In this document: positions 12,210 through 34,924 of the stretch, piece by piece
Numbering within the stretch: the first letter of the stretch is position 1
Layout of the letters: every line of letters starts with the position of its first letter
From: Candidatus Krumholzibacteriia bacterium
GTDB taxonomy: Bacteria; Krumholzibacteriota; Krumholzibacteriia; LZORAL124-64-63
Assembly: GCA_024763215.1 (NCBI GenBank)
Contig: JANTFX010000004.1
Coordinates: 8,961 to 72,960 of the forward strand
Direction of reading: 5' to 3'
DNA: 64,000 nucleotides
Notes under the pieces: model-generated
Databases searched by the model: none
Seen by the model: only the letters and a program-made list of their open reading frames with translations
What the model was told of the DNA's origin: nothing
Made by a program: the position numbers and the translations under genes

Positions 12210-12259
12210 TTGCAGACCTCCGTGTGAGTTAATCTTCCTTACCATACCGGGATGTACAA

Positions 12260-12323
12260 GGCAGGCAACCGTTTCTGGTTGCCTGCCGTGGGCATGATAG
12301 GCCCGGGTGACGCCTTTTTGCAA
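12260..12323 (-). promoter_or_regulatory. Putative sigma-70 promoter plus 5'-UTR hairpin for the OMP gene
   Basis: Minus strand TTGCAA(12323-12318)-N18-TATCAT(12299-12294), then a perfect 11-bp inverted repeat GGCAGGCAACC-6nt-GGTTGCCTGCC (12260-12287). Confidence 0.5.
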
Positions 12324-12431
12324 GCCATCTTTCATGGAAATTTTGCGATTCAGAACACAACCGTGGGGAATCATGATATCATGGCCAGAGCCAACACAGG
12401 AACTGAACCCGATAGATGGAGGGAAAAGCTG

Positions 12432-14186
12432 ATGAAACGACTGAATGGATGCTGGAAGCTCATGCTGGGGGGGCTATTGATCATCGCCTGGGCGGGGTGC
12501 TCGGGGGATTCCCCCACCACGCCGGATCAAGCGGGATCGGAAATCACGGCCCCAGCCGCGGGGCTGCAGAAGACCCTTCCGGCAGGAGAGGTTCGCCCCA
12601 CCCTGGATGAGGTCCTGCCGGGCCGCTACATCGTGCAGTTGAACGGCGACAAGGGATCGGTCAAGGCCATGGCCACGGACCTTGCCAAGCGCCACGGGTT
12701 CACCGTGGACCACCTCTACCAGGACGCGGTGAGGGGGTTCGCCGCCGGGATGACTGCTGATCAGGCCAAGCAGCTGGCGGGCGAGAGCGTGGTCCTGACC
12801 GTGGAGCCCGACCGCCTCATGACCGTGTTCGCCCAGCATGTGCCCACGGGCGTCGACCGCATGGATGTGGAACGGAATCCCGGGGCGGGGATCGAGGCCG
12901 GGCCGGTCGCCGTTGATGTGGATATCGCCATCATCGATACGGGCATCGATCCGGATCACCCCGATCTGAATGTCGTCGGCGGCGTGAAGCTCGTCGGTGG
13001 CGTGCCGGACCCCGACTTCAGCGACGGCTTCGGCCACGGAACCCATGTGGCGGGCATCGCCGCCGCCAGGAACGATGGCCGGGGCATCGTGGGCGTGGCC
13101 CCCGGCGCGCGCCTGTGGGCCGTGAAGGTCATGAGGGACAACGGGACCGGAAGCCTGTCGGATATCATCGCCGGCCTGGACTGGGTCGCCGCCAGGGCGG
13201 ACGAGATCGAGGTCATCAACATGAGCCTCGGCGGTTTCGGCTGGTCCGACGCCTACCGCAGCGCGGTGCAGGGCTGTGTGAACCAGGGCGTGGTGGTGGT
13301 GGTGGCGGCCGGGAACATGGGCATGGATGTCTACGGATTCGATCGCACCATCGGCAACTGGGACGATACGACCCCGGCGGCCTTCCCCGAGGCCATGACC
13401 ATCTCCGCGTTGGCCGACAGCGACGGTCTGCCCGGCGGGCTGGGCGCGGCGACCTCATCGGGAGCCGATGATTCGTCCCCCGGTTTTTCCAACACCTCCC
13501 ACACCGTGGTCGCGGGCAACCCCGTGAACTCTCCCGGTGCCGCCATCGACCTGATGCTGCCGGGCGTGGACATCATCTCCACGGTGCCCGGCGGCGGCTA
13601 TGAGGCCATGACCGGCACCAGCATGGCCTCGCCCCACGGCGCCGGCCTGGTGGCCCTGTACATCGCCTCGCACGGCCGGGCCACCGACGCGGCCGGGGTC
13701 TATGCCATCCGGCAGGCCCTGATCGATGCCGGGGCGCCCCAGGACAGCGCCTGGGGGCTGGCCAACGGCAGCGATCCGGACGGCAATCCGGAGCCCATCG
13801 GCATGGCGGCTCCCCTGTCCTCCTTCACCGATGTCGGTTTCCGCTTCTTCAAAGCCCAGGAAACCATCTACCCCGGCCAGACGATTCACGCGAGCGTGAT
13901 CATGGGGAACCGAGGCACCACCGATGTGGTCGTCCCCGTGACCGTGACCATGATCGAGCCGGAATCGGGCCGTGAAGTGATGACTCCGCGCACGGCTCCC
14001 ACCCTGGCTTTGGGGCAGACGCTGACCAGCTTCCCCCACATCCGGACCCCGTCGTCCTTGTCCCCGGGGGTTTACACCCTGGTCGTTCAGCATGATTTCG
14101 TGGACGATCTGGGGTTCAATGACAGCATGTCCATCGAGATCGAGGTGTTGCCCGCACCCCAGGGGCGACAGATCGTAGCCGACTGA
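12432..14186 (+). CDS. Lipoprotein subtilisin-like S8 peptidase with I9 propeptide and C-terminal Ig/CARDB-like domain
   Basis: Lipobox WAGC; IIDTGID, GHGTHVAG, GTSMASPH; propeptide RYIVQL..GFAAGM. Confidence 0.9.
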   Translation: MKRLNGCWKLMLGGLLIIAWAGCSGDSPTTPDQAGSEITAPAAGLQKTLPAGEVRPTLDEVLPGRYIVQLNGDKGSVKAMATDLAKRHGFTVDHLYQDAVRGFAAGMTADQAKQLAGESVVLTVEPDRLMTVFAQHVPTGVDRMDVERNPGAGIEAGPVAVDVDIAIIDTGIDPDHPDLNVVGGVKLVGGVPDPDFSDGFGHGTHVAGIAAARNDGRGIVGVAPGARLWAVKVMRDNGTGSLSDIIAGLDWVAARADEIEVINMSLGGFGWSDAYRSAVQGCVNQGVVVVVAAGNMGMDVYGFDRTIGNWDDTTPAAFPEAMTISALADSDGLPGGLGAATSSGADDSSPGFSNTSHTVVAGNPVNSPGAAIDLMLPGVDIISTVPGGGYEAMTGTSMASPHGAGLVALYIASHGRATDAAGVYAIRQALIDAGAPQDSAWGLANGSDPDGNPEPIGMAAPLSSFTDVGFRFFKAQETIYPGQTIHASVIMGNRGTTDVVVPVTVTMIEPESGREVMTPRTAPTLALGQTLTSFPHIRTPSSLSPGVYTLVVQHDFVDDLGFNDSMSIEIEVLPAPQGRQIVAD

Positions 14187-14234: not shown

Positions 14235-14331
14235 CACATGATCGGGCCGGGGGCTTGCGGGGCTGGCCGGATCTACGGATACTGATCAAAGACTATAATT
14301 GTTTTCTTTGTGTGCGAAAAGGAGTCTTGCC

Positions 14332-14895
14332 ATGCGGGATCTTGTCGTCGGCGCGCTGGTTCTGGTAGCTTGCCTGATGGTGGCCGGCGCGGGGTATGCC
14401 CAGTTCCAGGATCTGCCTCGCGTCGGTTTGAGCGCTTCGGCCACCTCGTACGTGGACTCGGTCGCCGTGGATCTGGGCGCCCCCTTCACGGTCTATGCCT
14501 GCATCTTCGGACCGGACGCCCAAACCCCCCTGCAGGAGACGATTTCCAGCGTGCCCTGGGTCATCCACCAGGTGTGTTGCGGGGCGGCCATGGAGATCCT
14601 GGATGTGCAGTACAACCCCGAGCTGGAGCACACGGGCCACCCCTTGGCCGGCGTGCGCAGCACCGCTCCTGAATGCCTGCAGCGTGATTCGCTGCTGCTG
14701 GCCACCTTGCTGGTTCAGGTCACGGCGGACCAGCCGGGGGAGTTCCTGTGGGCCGCCGGACTGGCCGACGCCTACGTGGACTGCAACGGGGACAACCCCT
14801 TGTTCCAGGGGCTTCCGGTGCTGATCATCGCCGATGGCGGCCAGGTTCCTGACGGCAAGACTAGCTGGGGGGGGCTGAAGGCCCTGTATCGCTGA
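14332..14895 (+). CDS. Secreted hypothetical protein with C-terminal SWGGLKALYR motif
   Basis: AAGGAG RBS, signal peptide ending AYA-like (GYA), several Cys including a CC pair, terminal GKTSWGGLKALYR*. Confidence 0.75.
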   Translation: MRDLVVGALVLVACLMVAGAGYAQFQDLPRVGLSASATSYVDSVAVDLGAPFTVYACIFGPDAQTPLQETISSVPWVIHQVCCGAAMEILDVQYNPELEHTGHPLAGVRSTAPECLQRDSLLLATLLVQVTADQPGEFLWAAGLADAYVDCNGDNPLFQGLPVLIIADGGQVPDGKTSWGGLKALYR

Positions 14896-14915: not shown

Positions 14916-15734
14916 CTACTGTACAAGGGTGATGGTCCTGAGCCGTGTGGTGGCCCCCGCTTCCAGCTGAACCAGGTATGTGCCGCTGGGTTGACGTCGC
15001 CCGGTGTTGTCGGTGCCGCGCCACGTTACCTCGTAGCGCCGGCCGGCGGCCCGGGTATCGTCAACCAGGGTAGACACGAGGCGGCCCCGCAGGTCCAGGA
15101 TCCGGAGCTGGACGGCGACATCCGCCGCCCCGGGGGCCAGCTCGAAGGGGATCCGCGTGGAAGGGTTGAAGGGGTTGGGGTAACCGGCCAGGAGCTGGTG
15201 CCCGGCGCCGGGAATCTCGGGCGCTGGTGAAAGCAGAGCGGCCAGGCCCTGGTCGATGGCCCCGCGCAGGGCCGCATCATCGTAGTCACCCCGCCAGATC
15301 ACGATACCGTCGCCCCCGATGACGAACAGGTAGTCGTAACCGCAGTTGTAGTCGGTGGTGATGCCCGCGGCGCCGCCGTACATCAGGATGGGGTAGGTGA
15401 CACCCGAACCTGAAGCGAAGATGTCCACCTGCGGCACTCCTCCGTCCCACACGTCGATGGCCAGGGCCGCGAAAGGCTGATCCTTGTAGGTCTGATAAAT
15501 GGCCTCCGTACCGGGGCCGTTGTTGATGCAGGCGATTCAACCGTAACCGATGATGAAGAGCATGACCACCTGGCCCTGATGCTCGCTAAGGGTGTGGATG
15601 GTCGTGCCGGGAAATTCGGTCAGGGCGAAGTCCGCGGCCACGGTGCCCGGGTCACCGGGTCCGGGTCCGGCCAGGGCGCCCGCGGCGGCAGCCAGGCAGC
15701 AGGCAAGGGCGATGGCTGTGCTGGGTTTTCTCAT
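14916..15734 (-). CDS. Secreted selenoprotein: thioredoxin-fold redoxin (UxxC) fused to a FlgD-Ig-type C-terminal domain; in-frame TGA at 15537-15539 read as Sec66
   Basis: ORF-track pieces 15537..15779 and 14916..15452 share a frame. Read-through gives ADFAL..LSEHQGQVVMLFIIGYG-U-IAC..YKDQPFAALAID..GVTYPIL..LFVIGGDGIVIW, a TlpA/AhpC-like fold, then YPNPFNPST CTD. Confidence 0.85.
15501..15518 (-). promoter_or_regulatory. Bacterial SECIS-like hairpin
   Basis: mRNA GGCCCC-GGUAC-GG(A)GGCC starts 18 nt after the UGA; the apical loop begins with G about 25 nt from the UGA, fitting bSECIS geometry. Confidence 0.65.
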
Positions 15735-15916
15735 GGGGTTCCGGCCTTTCGTTCGCTGGTGGAGCCCGTCATTTAACAAGACAAAAACGGTATTGAATTT
15801 ATACGAAGCTGGCCCCCCTCCCGCAACCCCGCCCCATGCGATCTCCGTGTCAGAACCTTGGCAGGAGATCTCCCATGGGGTATGGTGGCAAGCCGAACGG
15901 GAGGAAGGGAGACGTC

Positions 15917-16606
15917 ATGATCATCAACGACCACGGCCGGGGTCATTTGCGGATCCTCCAGTTGCATCTGGGCGGGGATCGCAACTTCCAGTACCTGCTG
16001 GCGGATGCCCGCACGGGCGAGGCGGTGGCGGTGGACCCCGGATTCGCGCCATCGCGCATGCTGGCCATCGCCCGGGAACAGGGGCTGACCATAGGACAGA
16101 TCCTGATCACGCATGGCCACTCCGATCACCAGGGCGGAGCCGTCGAACTGGCCGCTTTGACCGGGGCGGTCATCCTGGCGGGGGATCCGGGTGACCTGGC
16201 CGGGGCCGAGCCCCTGGCCGACGACCAGTTGCTGAGGCTCGGGGGGCTGGTCGTCCGCGCCCTGGCCACCCCCGGCCACGCCCCCGACCATTTCTGCTTC
16301 ATGTGCCAGGACTGCCTGCTGACCGGGGATCTGCTTTTCTGCGGCAAGGTGGGCGGCACGGGCCCGTATTTCCCCGGCTCCAGCGCCGGCCAGGAATGGG
16401 AATCGCTGCAGCGCCTGCTGCTGCTGCCGCCCGAGACCCGCATCTATCCCGGCCACGATTACTACGGGGGCCAGGGCACCATGCCGTTTTCCACGCTGGC
16501 GTTCGAGCAGGAGCACAACCCCTTCCTGACCAGCGGGGGGTTCGAGGCCTTCTGCGCCCTCAAGGAGAACTGGGCGGAGTACAAGGAAGAGCACGGTATC
16601 AGGTGA
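15917..16606 (+). CDS. MBL-fold metallo-hydrolase (glyoxalase II/ETHE1-like)
   Basis: THGHSDH (HxHxDH), TPGH, LLTGDLLF, IYPGHDY. Confidence 0.9.
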   Translation: MIINDHGRGHLRILQLHLGGDRNFQYLLADARTGEAVAVDPGFAPSRMLAIAREQGLTIGQILITHGHSDHQGGAVELAALTGAVILAGDPGDLAGAEPLADDQLLRLGGLVVRALATPGHAPDHFCFMCQDCLLTGDLLFCGKVGGTGPYFPGSSAGQEWESLQRLLLLPPETRIYPGHDYYGGQGTMPFSTLAFEQEHNPFLTSGGFEAFCALKENWAEYKEEHGIR

Positions 16607-33615: not shown

Positions 33616-33724
33616 CGGCGGCCATGGGTTACCATGAACCGGTTGCCCGGGGAACCGAATCTCCGCCGGACGGTATGACCCCGGGTCCGCCGCCGCCATG
33701 TCTTCGTCGCAAGGATTTCCCATC

Positions 33725-34924
33725 ATGACCACACTGCCTCGCCGTGCCGCAGCCCTGTCCGTCTGCCTGTTCCTGCTGGTGGCCGGGATGGCCGGGGCCA
33801 ACCCCGACTACGACGCCGCCCTCGCCCGCACCCGTACCCTGACCGACAACCTGCAATCCTACGAACTGCAGGGGACCATGCACATGGCGACCAACGTCAA
33901 GGGCCAGACCGGCGGCATGGAGATGGAGGCGGATATCTTCGCCGCGGCCCGATATCCCGACCGCCTGGTCAGCCGCCAGGACGGCAGTTTCTTCAAGCTG
34001 GACCTGGGGGTGGGCCCGGAACATTCCTGGTTCTACCTGGGCCAGAAAAACGTCTGTTTCCTCTCCGGGCCCGTCATGCTCAGCCGGGAACTGACGGCCG
34101 ACCAGAACATGGAGCTGGTGCCCGAGCAGGTGTTCAACTTCTTCTCGGGCCTGGGCCAGACCCTGTTGCCTGCGGGCCTCGAGGTGGCCGAGATCACCGG
34201 CCACGAGGTCTACCACATGGGCGGAAAGGATATCCCCTGCCAGGTGTTCACCAGCCCGGCCGTACCGGAAGCGGGCAAGGGGCCGCGGGAGTACTGGTAT
34301 GACCCGCAGTCCGGCCTGGTGCTCAAGGCCGTCATGTCGGTGACCGGGGTGCGCAACGGCATGCAGATGGAACAGACCCTGGACTACGAGACGTCCAGGT
34401 TCACCCTCAACGAACCGGTCCAGGAGGATCTCTTCACCTTCGCGGTCCCCGCGGGGGCCAAGGTGGTGGACCAGCTGGAGAAGGTGGTCAACCCCGATTC
34501 GATGACCGGCGAGGCCGCCCCCGAAATCTCCTTCACCGACCTTGACGGCAACACCCTCAAGCTTTCCGATTTCCGGGGCCGGGTCGTGTTCCTGGATTTC
34601 TGGGCCACCTGGTGCGGCCCCTGCAAGATGGAGATGCCCCACCTGGAAACCCTGCACCAGGAGCTGGGCGGGAAGGACGGCGTCGTGTTCCTGGCCGCCA
34701 GCAGCGAGGATCCGGCGACCATCAAGGCCTTCCTCAAGAAGTACGGCTACACATTCAAGGTGGTGCAGGTTTCCGCCGAGGACGCCGCGGGCAAGTTCAA
34801 GGCGACCAGCATTCCCTCCGGTTTCGTCATCGATCAGGACGGCGTGATCCGGGCCCACCTGGTGGGCGCCCAGTCGGAAAAGCAGCTGCGGGCCGCCCTG
34901 GGCAGGGCTGGTATCGGCGGGTAA
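33725..34924 (+). CDS. Periplasmic protein: LolA/DUF2092-like N-terminal domain plus TlpA-type redoxin
   Basis: Signal peptide ending AGA; YWYDPQSGLVLK and LFTFAVPAGAKVV (LolA-like ending); APEISFTDLDG..FLDFWATWCGPC..IPSGFVIDQDG. Start 33698 or 33725. Confidence 0.85.
   Translation: MTTLPRRAAALSVCLFLLVAGMAGANPDYDAALARTRTLTDNLQSYELQGTMHMATNVKGQTGGMEMEADIFAAARYPDRLVSRQDGSFFKLDLGVGPEHSWFYLGQKNVCFLSGPVMLSRELTADQNMELVPEQVFNFFSGLGQTLLPAGLEVAEITGHEVYHMGGKDIPCQVFTSPAVPEAGKGPREYWYDPQSGLVLKAVMSVTGVRNGMQMEQTLDYETSRFTLNEPVQEDLFTFAVPAGAKVVDQLEKVVNPDSMTGEAAPEISFTDLDGNTLKLSDFRGRVVFLDFWATWCGPCKMEMPHLETLHQELGGKDGVVFLAASSEDPATIKAFLKKYGYTFKVVQVSAEDAAGKFKATSIPSGFVIDQDGVIRAHLVGAQSEKQLRAALGRAGIGG

Follow-up and report, generated by a model that had tools for sequence, protein, structure and literature searches.

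The minus strand of a 64,000-nucleotide stretch of DNA from a Candidatus Krumholzibacteriia bacterium (the window; all coordinates refer to this whole stretch unless a contig or locus is named) carries what is almost certainly a selenoprotein gene, which gene finders cut in two, here and in close relatives, as judged from frames and alignments. Read through its single in-frame UGA, the gene would encode an exported thiol-disulfide selenoenzyme of 272 residues in which UGA-66 specifies selenocysteine (Sec) and a redoxin domain is followed by a C-terminal tail of the FlgD_ig/T9SS type. We put the probability of this reading at about 0.8.

Reading frame and annotation

From its ATG (15734-15732) to its TAG (14918-14916), the minus strand between 15734 and 14916 forms one frame of 272 residues, which contains a single in-frame TGA at 15539-15537 (codon 66) in the context LFIIGYG-U-IAC when TGA is translated as U (Table 1). 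The TGA falls on the first position of the redox motif (GYG-U-IAC), as an earlier note on this DNA had pointed out, and its column is conserved across genomes. The same note had predicted that gene callers would split the gene, and this is what happens: translation table 11 cuts the frame into an 80-aa ORF (15537..15779) and a 178-aa ORF (14916..15452), and the protein database entry for the gene (P0002, 170 aa) consists of the C-terminal piece only. The close database matches (n=56, E<=1.2e-25) are 153-208 aa long and cover at most 75 % of the query, and 17 out of 17 aligned close entries start downstream of U. That all 56 entries are short and that every aligned one begins past U is what systematic truncation at a Sec codon would produce. 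Reading the gene through corrects a systematic annotation error which, judging by coverage, has left 56 of 56 close entries without the signal peptide and the active site.

Table 1. Features of the predicted selenoprotein gene and of a redoxin fusion gene elsewhere in the genome
Feature	Coordinates	Strand	Basis or remark
Complete selenoprotein gene, 272 codons (one UGA read as Sec) plus TAG	14916..15734	-	Read-through translation; orthologues read alike
Possible Shine-Dalgarno-like GAAAGG, 10 nt 5' of the ATG	15745..15750	-	Sequence reading, tentative
Putative signal peptide, residues 1-22 (MRK, hydrophobic run, ALA before G23)	15669..15734	-	Sequence inspection
ResA/TlpA-like thioredoxin-fold (redoxin) domain, residues 27-170	15225..15656	-	Pfam, NCBIfam, PDB profile, Foldseek
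UGA predicted to encode selenocysteine 66, position 1 of the UxxC redox motif	15537..15539	-	Aligned with the first Cys of CxxC in homologues
Cys69, resolving residue of UxxC	15528..15530	-	Invariant in alignment A3
Candidate bSECIS hairpin GGCCCCG-GUA-CGG-A-GGCC	15501..15518	-	MFE -9.8 kcal/mol, 7 bp, one bulged A
C-terminal sorting domain (FlgD_ig / T9SS type), residues 181-272	14919..15194	-	Pfam, NCBIfam, AF2
TlpA-DUF6029 fusion	G000 contig C5, locus L130 955..2925	-	Ends YGTFRY

The redoxin domain

Taken as a single sequence, the domain around the UGA stays under the thresholds of the families that it resembles: AhpC-TSA of Pfam matches residues 45-160 with E 6e-5 (23.4 bits against a gathering score of 26), Redoxin of Pfam with E 0.016 (15.4 bits against 26.6) and ResA of NCBIfam with E 3.4e-8 (33.6 bits against a cut-off of 170), while no NCBIfam model names this redoxin family. 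Yet a redoxin profile built from 28 family members reaches solved structures of extracytoplasmic redoxins in the PDB, 3kcm at 5e-21 and ResA at about 1e-14, with the U column on the first Cys of CxxC, and the domain is best regarded as a diverged subfamily.

The fold had been expected to continue past the TGA. Indeed, the AhpC-TSA match extends on both sides of the codon, and the AF2 model computed from alignment A3 reaches a mean pLDDT of 89.6 and places U66 at the N-terminal end of helix 1 (residues 67-83). The model further comprises a disordered linker (residues 170-175) and a beta-sandwich (residues 193-270) whose strands exceed a pLDDT of 90. Foldseek superimposes ResA with a TM score of 0.86 and an rmsd of 1.9 over 137 columns; its top two-domain match is DipZ, in whose solved structure a redoxin likewise precedes a beta-sandwich. 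The reading as a redoxin joined to a FlgD-type C-terminal domain is backed by the Pfam and NCBIfam searches, the sequence and fold searches against the PDB and the structure model alike. Within the window itself, the ORF 33698..34924 has a TlpA-like domain, FLDFWATWCGPC, to which LFIIGYG-U-IAC had been aligned (at about 34600) in the earlier note; BLASTP agrees, placing U on the first Cys of this domain at 24 % identity and E 1e-4. That ORF (+) encodes a 408-aa exported protein in which an N-terminal part of about 260 residues precedes a classical TlpA domain (WCGPC).

Conservation of the UGA and exchange with cysteine

A scan of contigs with the tail motif [YF]PNPFNPxT gave 80 loci that have only the C-terminal domain in common; since these are uninformative about the redoxin, six-frame searches of related genomes were used instead. 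In 60 such genomes they yielded some 30 matches in which homology extends to either side of a single TGA. When 32 segments were read through, 27 had U in the same motif, G-[YHWF]-x-U-x-x-C, and in the same column; one family member (L122) has Cys at the Sec column (GYACAPC), and more distant TlpA-like outgroup sequences (L126-L129) have CxxC at the Sec position in four cases out of four. A phylum-wide search of 208 genomes found a match at E<=1e-15 in 69 of them, with 83 matches in all. By hand count, exactly one TGA is present in 79 of these, two in 1 and none in 3, and one of the three TGA-free matches begins at residue 68, past the Sec site. The homologues examined have TGA or Cys at the site and never another residue, in line with the Cys homologues that the earlier note had anticipated. 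Columns invariant in alignment A3 lie on either side of U66, namely G30, L38 and G63 before it and C69, W96, G98, P115 and Y129 after it. Conservation of the TGA column across genomes shows that the position of this codon is more than chance. The possibility of a sequencing error, also raised in the earlier note, finds no echo in read data: contigs from two public runs of one study cover 15537-15539 and have TGA only, and a strain-variant contig with 5 differences over 145 nt (among them, by inspection, synonymous third-position changes 5' of the TGA) keeps it as well. Since the runs probably include the source sample, these contigs are weak as independent support. No RNA run was found to contain the stretch, a result that has no bearing on expression.

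To what degree the family alternates between Sec and Cys can be seen from a search of the family profile against 1.84 billion representative proteins, which had 54,416 hits at E<=0.001, of which 80 reached E<=1e-30. The 14 matches that were fetched include Cys forms of full length (about 255-270 aa) that have GYGCPHC or GYACPHC and carry a sorting tail. A tree was built from the 27 Sec rows, L122, 3 generic TlpA sequences and 11 Cys forms chosen manually among the 150 matches listed; it separates the family from generic TlpA with 100/99 support. It requires a minimum of 2-3 Sec/Cys changes, and a Cys clade is nested among Sec rows. A lineage with near-universal selenium use in a redoxin, and with Cys reversions inside Sec clades, should be useful for the study of Sec/Cys exchange. 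Tandem arrangements also occur: several related genomes (loci L118 and L120; genomes G134, G145, G146 and G155) have two Sec-redoxin copies a few hundred bases apart, both with a TGA.

Selenocysteine machinery and genetic code

The Sec machinery that the gene had been taken to imply does exist in this genome, an assembly of 3.23 Mb in 179 contigs with a completeness of 93.6 %. Its components are selD (367.9 bits), selA (454.3), selB (324) and tRNA-Sec (69.4), all above curated cut-offs, and the tRNA-SeC is called by ARAGORN too. Each refuting condition named in the earlier note has come out in favour of its reading. The selD gene (contig C38:14498-15415, minus strand, locus L001) is itself Sec-encoded, with one in-frame TGA in the context FAKSAG-U-AAKLSPGDL. 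A paralogue (contig C47:18771-19211, minus strand) constitutes a second Sec-redoxin, 35 % identical, which has the motif VGYS-U-PFC and ends in a short C-terminal tag in place of the FlgD-type tail. With selD, the genome has at least three Sec-UGA genes. On the other hand, TGA closes 2386 ORFs of at least 300 codons in the same genome and is thus an ordinary stop codon here that has not been generally reassigned.

A candidate bSECIS element

The G-loop hairpin that had been noted 18 nt 3' of the TGA is present at 15518-15501, its loop GUA (15511-15509) lying 25 nt from the UGA, but taken alone it does not rise above chance. [quoted passage not shown] 2 legend). In our own implementation they are satisfied by this hairpin and by 25 of 27 family members, but also by 80 of 150 true TGA stops and by 93 of 150 in-frame sites picked at random from long ORFs. 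Since 53-62 % of control sites thus fit the model in this genome of 66 % G+C, it is unspecific and by itself a weak test. Folding of the 76 nt around the UGA gives z = -0.84, which is not distinctive; together with the control sites that fit so loose a model, this means that the hairpin alone is not above chance.

Stronger indications come from comparison. RNAalifold predicted no pairs and no consensus structure for all 27 downstream stretches, and the test was then run on one specified helix. In the 20 closer orthologues, for which the codon alignment is ungapped, 86.5 % of the helix cells are paired, against 32-52 % after a shift of the partner by 1-3 columns, and compensatory changes affect both sides in four of the seven pairs (7 cells). 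None of 500 shuffles reached the observed percentage paired, the number of double-change cells or the covariation score, and 2/500 reached the number of pairs changed on both sides; over all 27 sequences 83.5 % of cells are paired, with 16 double-change cells, all these covariation figures being inflated by the relatedness of the sequences and by the derivation of the helix from one of them. The seven most divergent copies form a stronger hairpin that is shifted in register and has a UGA-to-loop distance of 19 nt, and the paralogue on C47 has an 8-bp version at the same distance from the UGA (18 nt). Rfam gave no meaningful match at E<=10. The hairpin may well function as a SECIS.

Export and the C-terminal domain

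The putative signal peptide has an equivalent in all full-length orthologues, whose N-termini are likewise basic and then hydrophobic; the AF2 model places a helix at residues 7-17 at low pLDDT. A reading of Cys12 as the acylation site of a lipoprotein was rejected, as it has no lipobox context and the Cys is absent from the conserved set of the orthologues.

The C-terminal domain begins after the linker with LLAGYPNPFNPST. It matches FlgD_ig of Pfam at 7.6e-8, above the gathering score, while Por_Secre_tail (0.0044, 17.7 bits against 27) and TIGR04183 (8.7e-4, 19.2 against 23) both fall below their cut-offs; the NCBIfam model of PorU matches with its C-terminal domain at 5.2e-10, below the whole-protein cut-off. 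Such C-termini are frequent in this genome, where 69 stop-to-stop ORFs have PNP[FA]NP within their last 110 residues and about 50 places, including this gene (C4:23912-24145), resemble no part of the PorU model but its C-terminal domain.

The genome also encodes candidates for the corresponding machinery. Both PorU (full-length, 468.8 bits) and SprA (497 bits summed) score above their cut-offs, and a PorV-like gene (98.2 bits, under the cut-off) directly adjoins PorU. GldK gave weak partial matches only. GldM and GldL were not found in this 93.6 % complete genome; their absence says little, since the same searches were silent in every control genome too. A DsbD/CcdA-type membrane protein (184.7 bits) could reduce periplasmic redoxins. 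The earlier note had called the protein exported and possibly surface-sorted. The exported redoxin with its C-terminal domain stands, but sorting to the surface keeps a conditional status, given that PorU, SprA and a PorV-like protein are present but the searches found neither GldL nor GldM. A T9SS-like route of secretion is probable and, among the locations considered, the most likely reading; a purely periplasmic location is its main rival.

Gene neighbourhood

The convergent neighbour of the gene is a 198-aa ORF that belongs to no known family (14299..14895, +); the divergent one is a gene for an MBL-fold hydrolase (15836..16606, +; GloB-like at 3.3e-30, under the cut-off). The hydrolase could be described as GloB-like or as persulfide-dioxygenase-like, both matches being under curated cut-offs. 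Further away, a subtilase gene (12252..14186, +; Peptidase_S8 with an I9 propeptide) lies upstream in the window and recurs as a neighbour at one orthologous locus (L103).

In 19 orthologous loci scanned for about 1.5 kb on each side, the divergent MBL-fold neighbour is kept in four (L102, L103, L108, L109), of which L108 and L109 come from other genera. A DUF6029 gene is found downstream on the same strand in five of the 19 (L111, L114, L115, L117, L123), and a gene for a Cys-type AhpC-TSA/Redoxin protein lies directly downstream in three (L112, L114, L123). In several related genera the Sec-redoxin gene apparently heads an operon with a Cys-type TlpA redoxin and DUF6029. The single DUF6029 match of the present genome is fused behind a TlpA-like domain (WCRPC) in a 656-aa protein with a signal peptide, the end of which looks, from its sequence, like the terminus of an outer-membrane barrel.

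Alternative readings

An in-frame TGA may also be a true stop, in a pseudogene, through a sequencing error or between two small genes, with no full-length protein being made. Gene callers end the ORF at this codon, and the hairpin by itself is statistically undistinctive, both of which would fit. Such an explanation is nevertheless very improbable, as the TGA column is kept in 27 of 27 read-through TGA copies and in 79 of the 83 matches from 69 genomes, conservation of amino acids extends to either side of it, only read-through completes the thioredoxin fold, a signal peptide is missing from the downstream piece and the letters are confirmed by the run contigs. Equally hard to credit is a UGA read as Trp, Gly or Cys, be it by a changed code or by near-cognate suppression. 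Nothing specific speaks for it; in other systems, Cys is known to be inserted at UGA when selenium is scarce. Here, the 2386 long ORFs ended by TGA mark it as an ordinary stop, the Sec machinery is complete and in homologues the site pairs with no residue but Cys, all of which argues against another amino acid.

The more serious competitor, unlikely as we judge it to be, accepts a genuine selenoprotein and keeps it in the periplasm, where it would be reduced by CcdA/DsbD like TlpA and ResA, the Ig-like C-terminal domain serving as a structural or binding module. The DsbD/CcdA-type protein of this genome would suit such a role, the T9SS tail models stay below their cut-offs, GldL and GldM were not found and GldK is weak; moreover, the best two-domain fold match is DipZ, in which a beta-sandwich comes after the redoxin, and some family members have no such C-terminal domain at all. 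Against a confinement to the periplasm speak the location of the domain at the extreme C-terminus, as in some 50-69 other ORFs of the genome, its match to the C-terminal domain of the PorU model, the presence of PorU and SprA above cut-offs and the existence of Cys homologues with clear Bacteroidota-style tails of the same kind.

Proposed mechanism

The reading frame, the conserved UGA, the pairing of Sec with Cys, the Sec machinery, the fold and the arrangement of the domains are established by the analysis. As regards Sec insertion itself, the role of the hairpin, the path of secretion, the place where the protein ends up, its substrate and its electron donor, we infer the following course for the exported and probably secreted selenoenzyme. 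UGA-66 would be decoded as Sec by SelB and tRNA-Sec, aided by the intragenic hairpin 18 nt downstream. The signal peptide would direct Sec-type export across the inner membrane, followed by folding in the periplasm, where the redox pair Sec66-x-x-Cys69 could form a selenenylsulfide in place of a disulfide. The protein would then be transferred to an outer-membrane SprA/PorV/PorU machinery and be released or fixed on the cell surface, where it might act as a thiol-disulfide reductase or as a peroxide-reducing enzyme. Selenium would confer higher reactivity and resistance to over-oxidation.

A further extension of this scheme, which is speculative and unlikely, makes the protein a surface selenoenzyme that crosses the outer membrane by means of its T9SS-type tail and is the outermost member of a thiol/selenol relay, running from CcdA/DsbD to an outer-membrane-bound redoxin (the TlpA-DUF6029 fusion) and on to the selenoprotein. 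If such a relay existed, selenium would enable the enzyme to persist and turn over in surroundings that are oxidising and poor in reductants. In any case, the gene offers a concrete and testable candidate for a selenoprotein that leaves the periplasm. Should surface display be confirmed, the questions would become how an extracellular selenol is re-reduced and what its target is.

Comparison with known systems

The combination of features, described as unusual in the earlier note, turns out to be less so: Cys versions of the redoxin with a tail are common, and UxxC TlpA-like selenoproteins have already been catalogued. [quoted passage not shown] As described there, these families share with the present one the Sec in first position of UxxC on a TlpA/Prx-like thioredoxin fold, the existence of Cys homologues and a bioinformatic origin of the prediction; in this comparison by description, the difference is that Sec is here nearly fixed across a phylum-level group. 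The same passages make no mention of a signal peptide, a secretion tail or this lineage, and in PMC13188914 the terms 'signal peptide', 'secreted' and 'periplasm' each occur 0 times. A poorly weighted literature search gave no selenoprotein joined with FlgD, Eisenbacteria or Krumholzibacteriota, and its lone T9SS paper was unrelated; the combination may be published. The protein is possibly a new member, or even a new subfamily, of the UxxC thioredoxin-fold selenoproteins, in which the secretion-type tail and the near-fixation of Sec stand out.

With ResA, TlpA and CcmG (DsbE) (PDB 1st9, 1su9, 3kcm, 1jfu, 3gl3), the family has in common the fold, the motif at the start of helix 1, export and a cis-Pro-type YP loop, P115 being invariant in the family. 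These proteins have WCxxC, whereas the present family has GYG-U-xx-C together with motifs of its own (D-x-W-[DN]-G and Y-x-x-x-Y-D); they are membrane-anchored or periplasmic, with no sorting tail after the redoxin. The Cys-form homologues (for example P0146, P0147, P0152, P0154, P0159 and P0134) share with the present protein the succession of a signal peptide, a redoxin and a C-terminal sorting domain. About 255-270 aa long, with GYGCxxC and a T9SS tail, they fall into the same family on the tree and match the profile at E 1e-30 to 1e-39. They differ by having Cys for Sec, and most seemingly come from another lineage of low G+C and have a tail of the 'PNPA' type.

An experimental precedent for a thioredoxin-type protein taken to the cell surface by its C-terminal domain, likened here by description, is HBP35 of Porphyromonas gingivalis, reported as a T9SS cargo with thioredoxin activity (PMC4674972). 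It differs in that it uses Cys, belongs to a pathogen of the Bacteroidota and has a haem-related role. The multihaem cytochrome selenoprotein MccSep (bioRxiv 10.1101/2025.11.18.688581) is described as an exported selenoenzyme outside the cytoplasm; its fold and chemistry are unrelated to those of the redoxin, and the part of the source at hand mentions no sorting tail.

A second C-terminal tag

Members of the family that lack the FlgD-type tail end in a short tag of approximate consensus [ST]-[WF]-[GS]-x-[IVL]-K-x-[LM]-[YF]-R, which is covered by no family of Pfam or NCBIfam. That two C-terminal tags can replace each other within one family suggests a sorting role for the short one too, perhaps as a signal not described before. 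The same tag ends 32 stop-to-stop ORFs genome-wide, many of them of about 200-290 aa, and the convergent 198-aa neighbour (14299..14895, +) ends in it as well, as TSWGGLKALYR.
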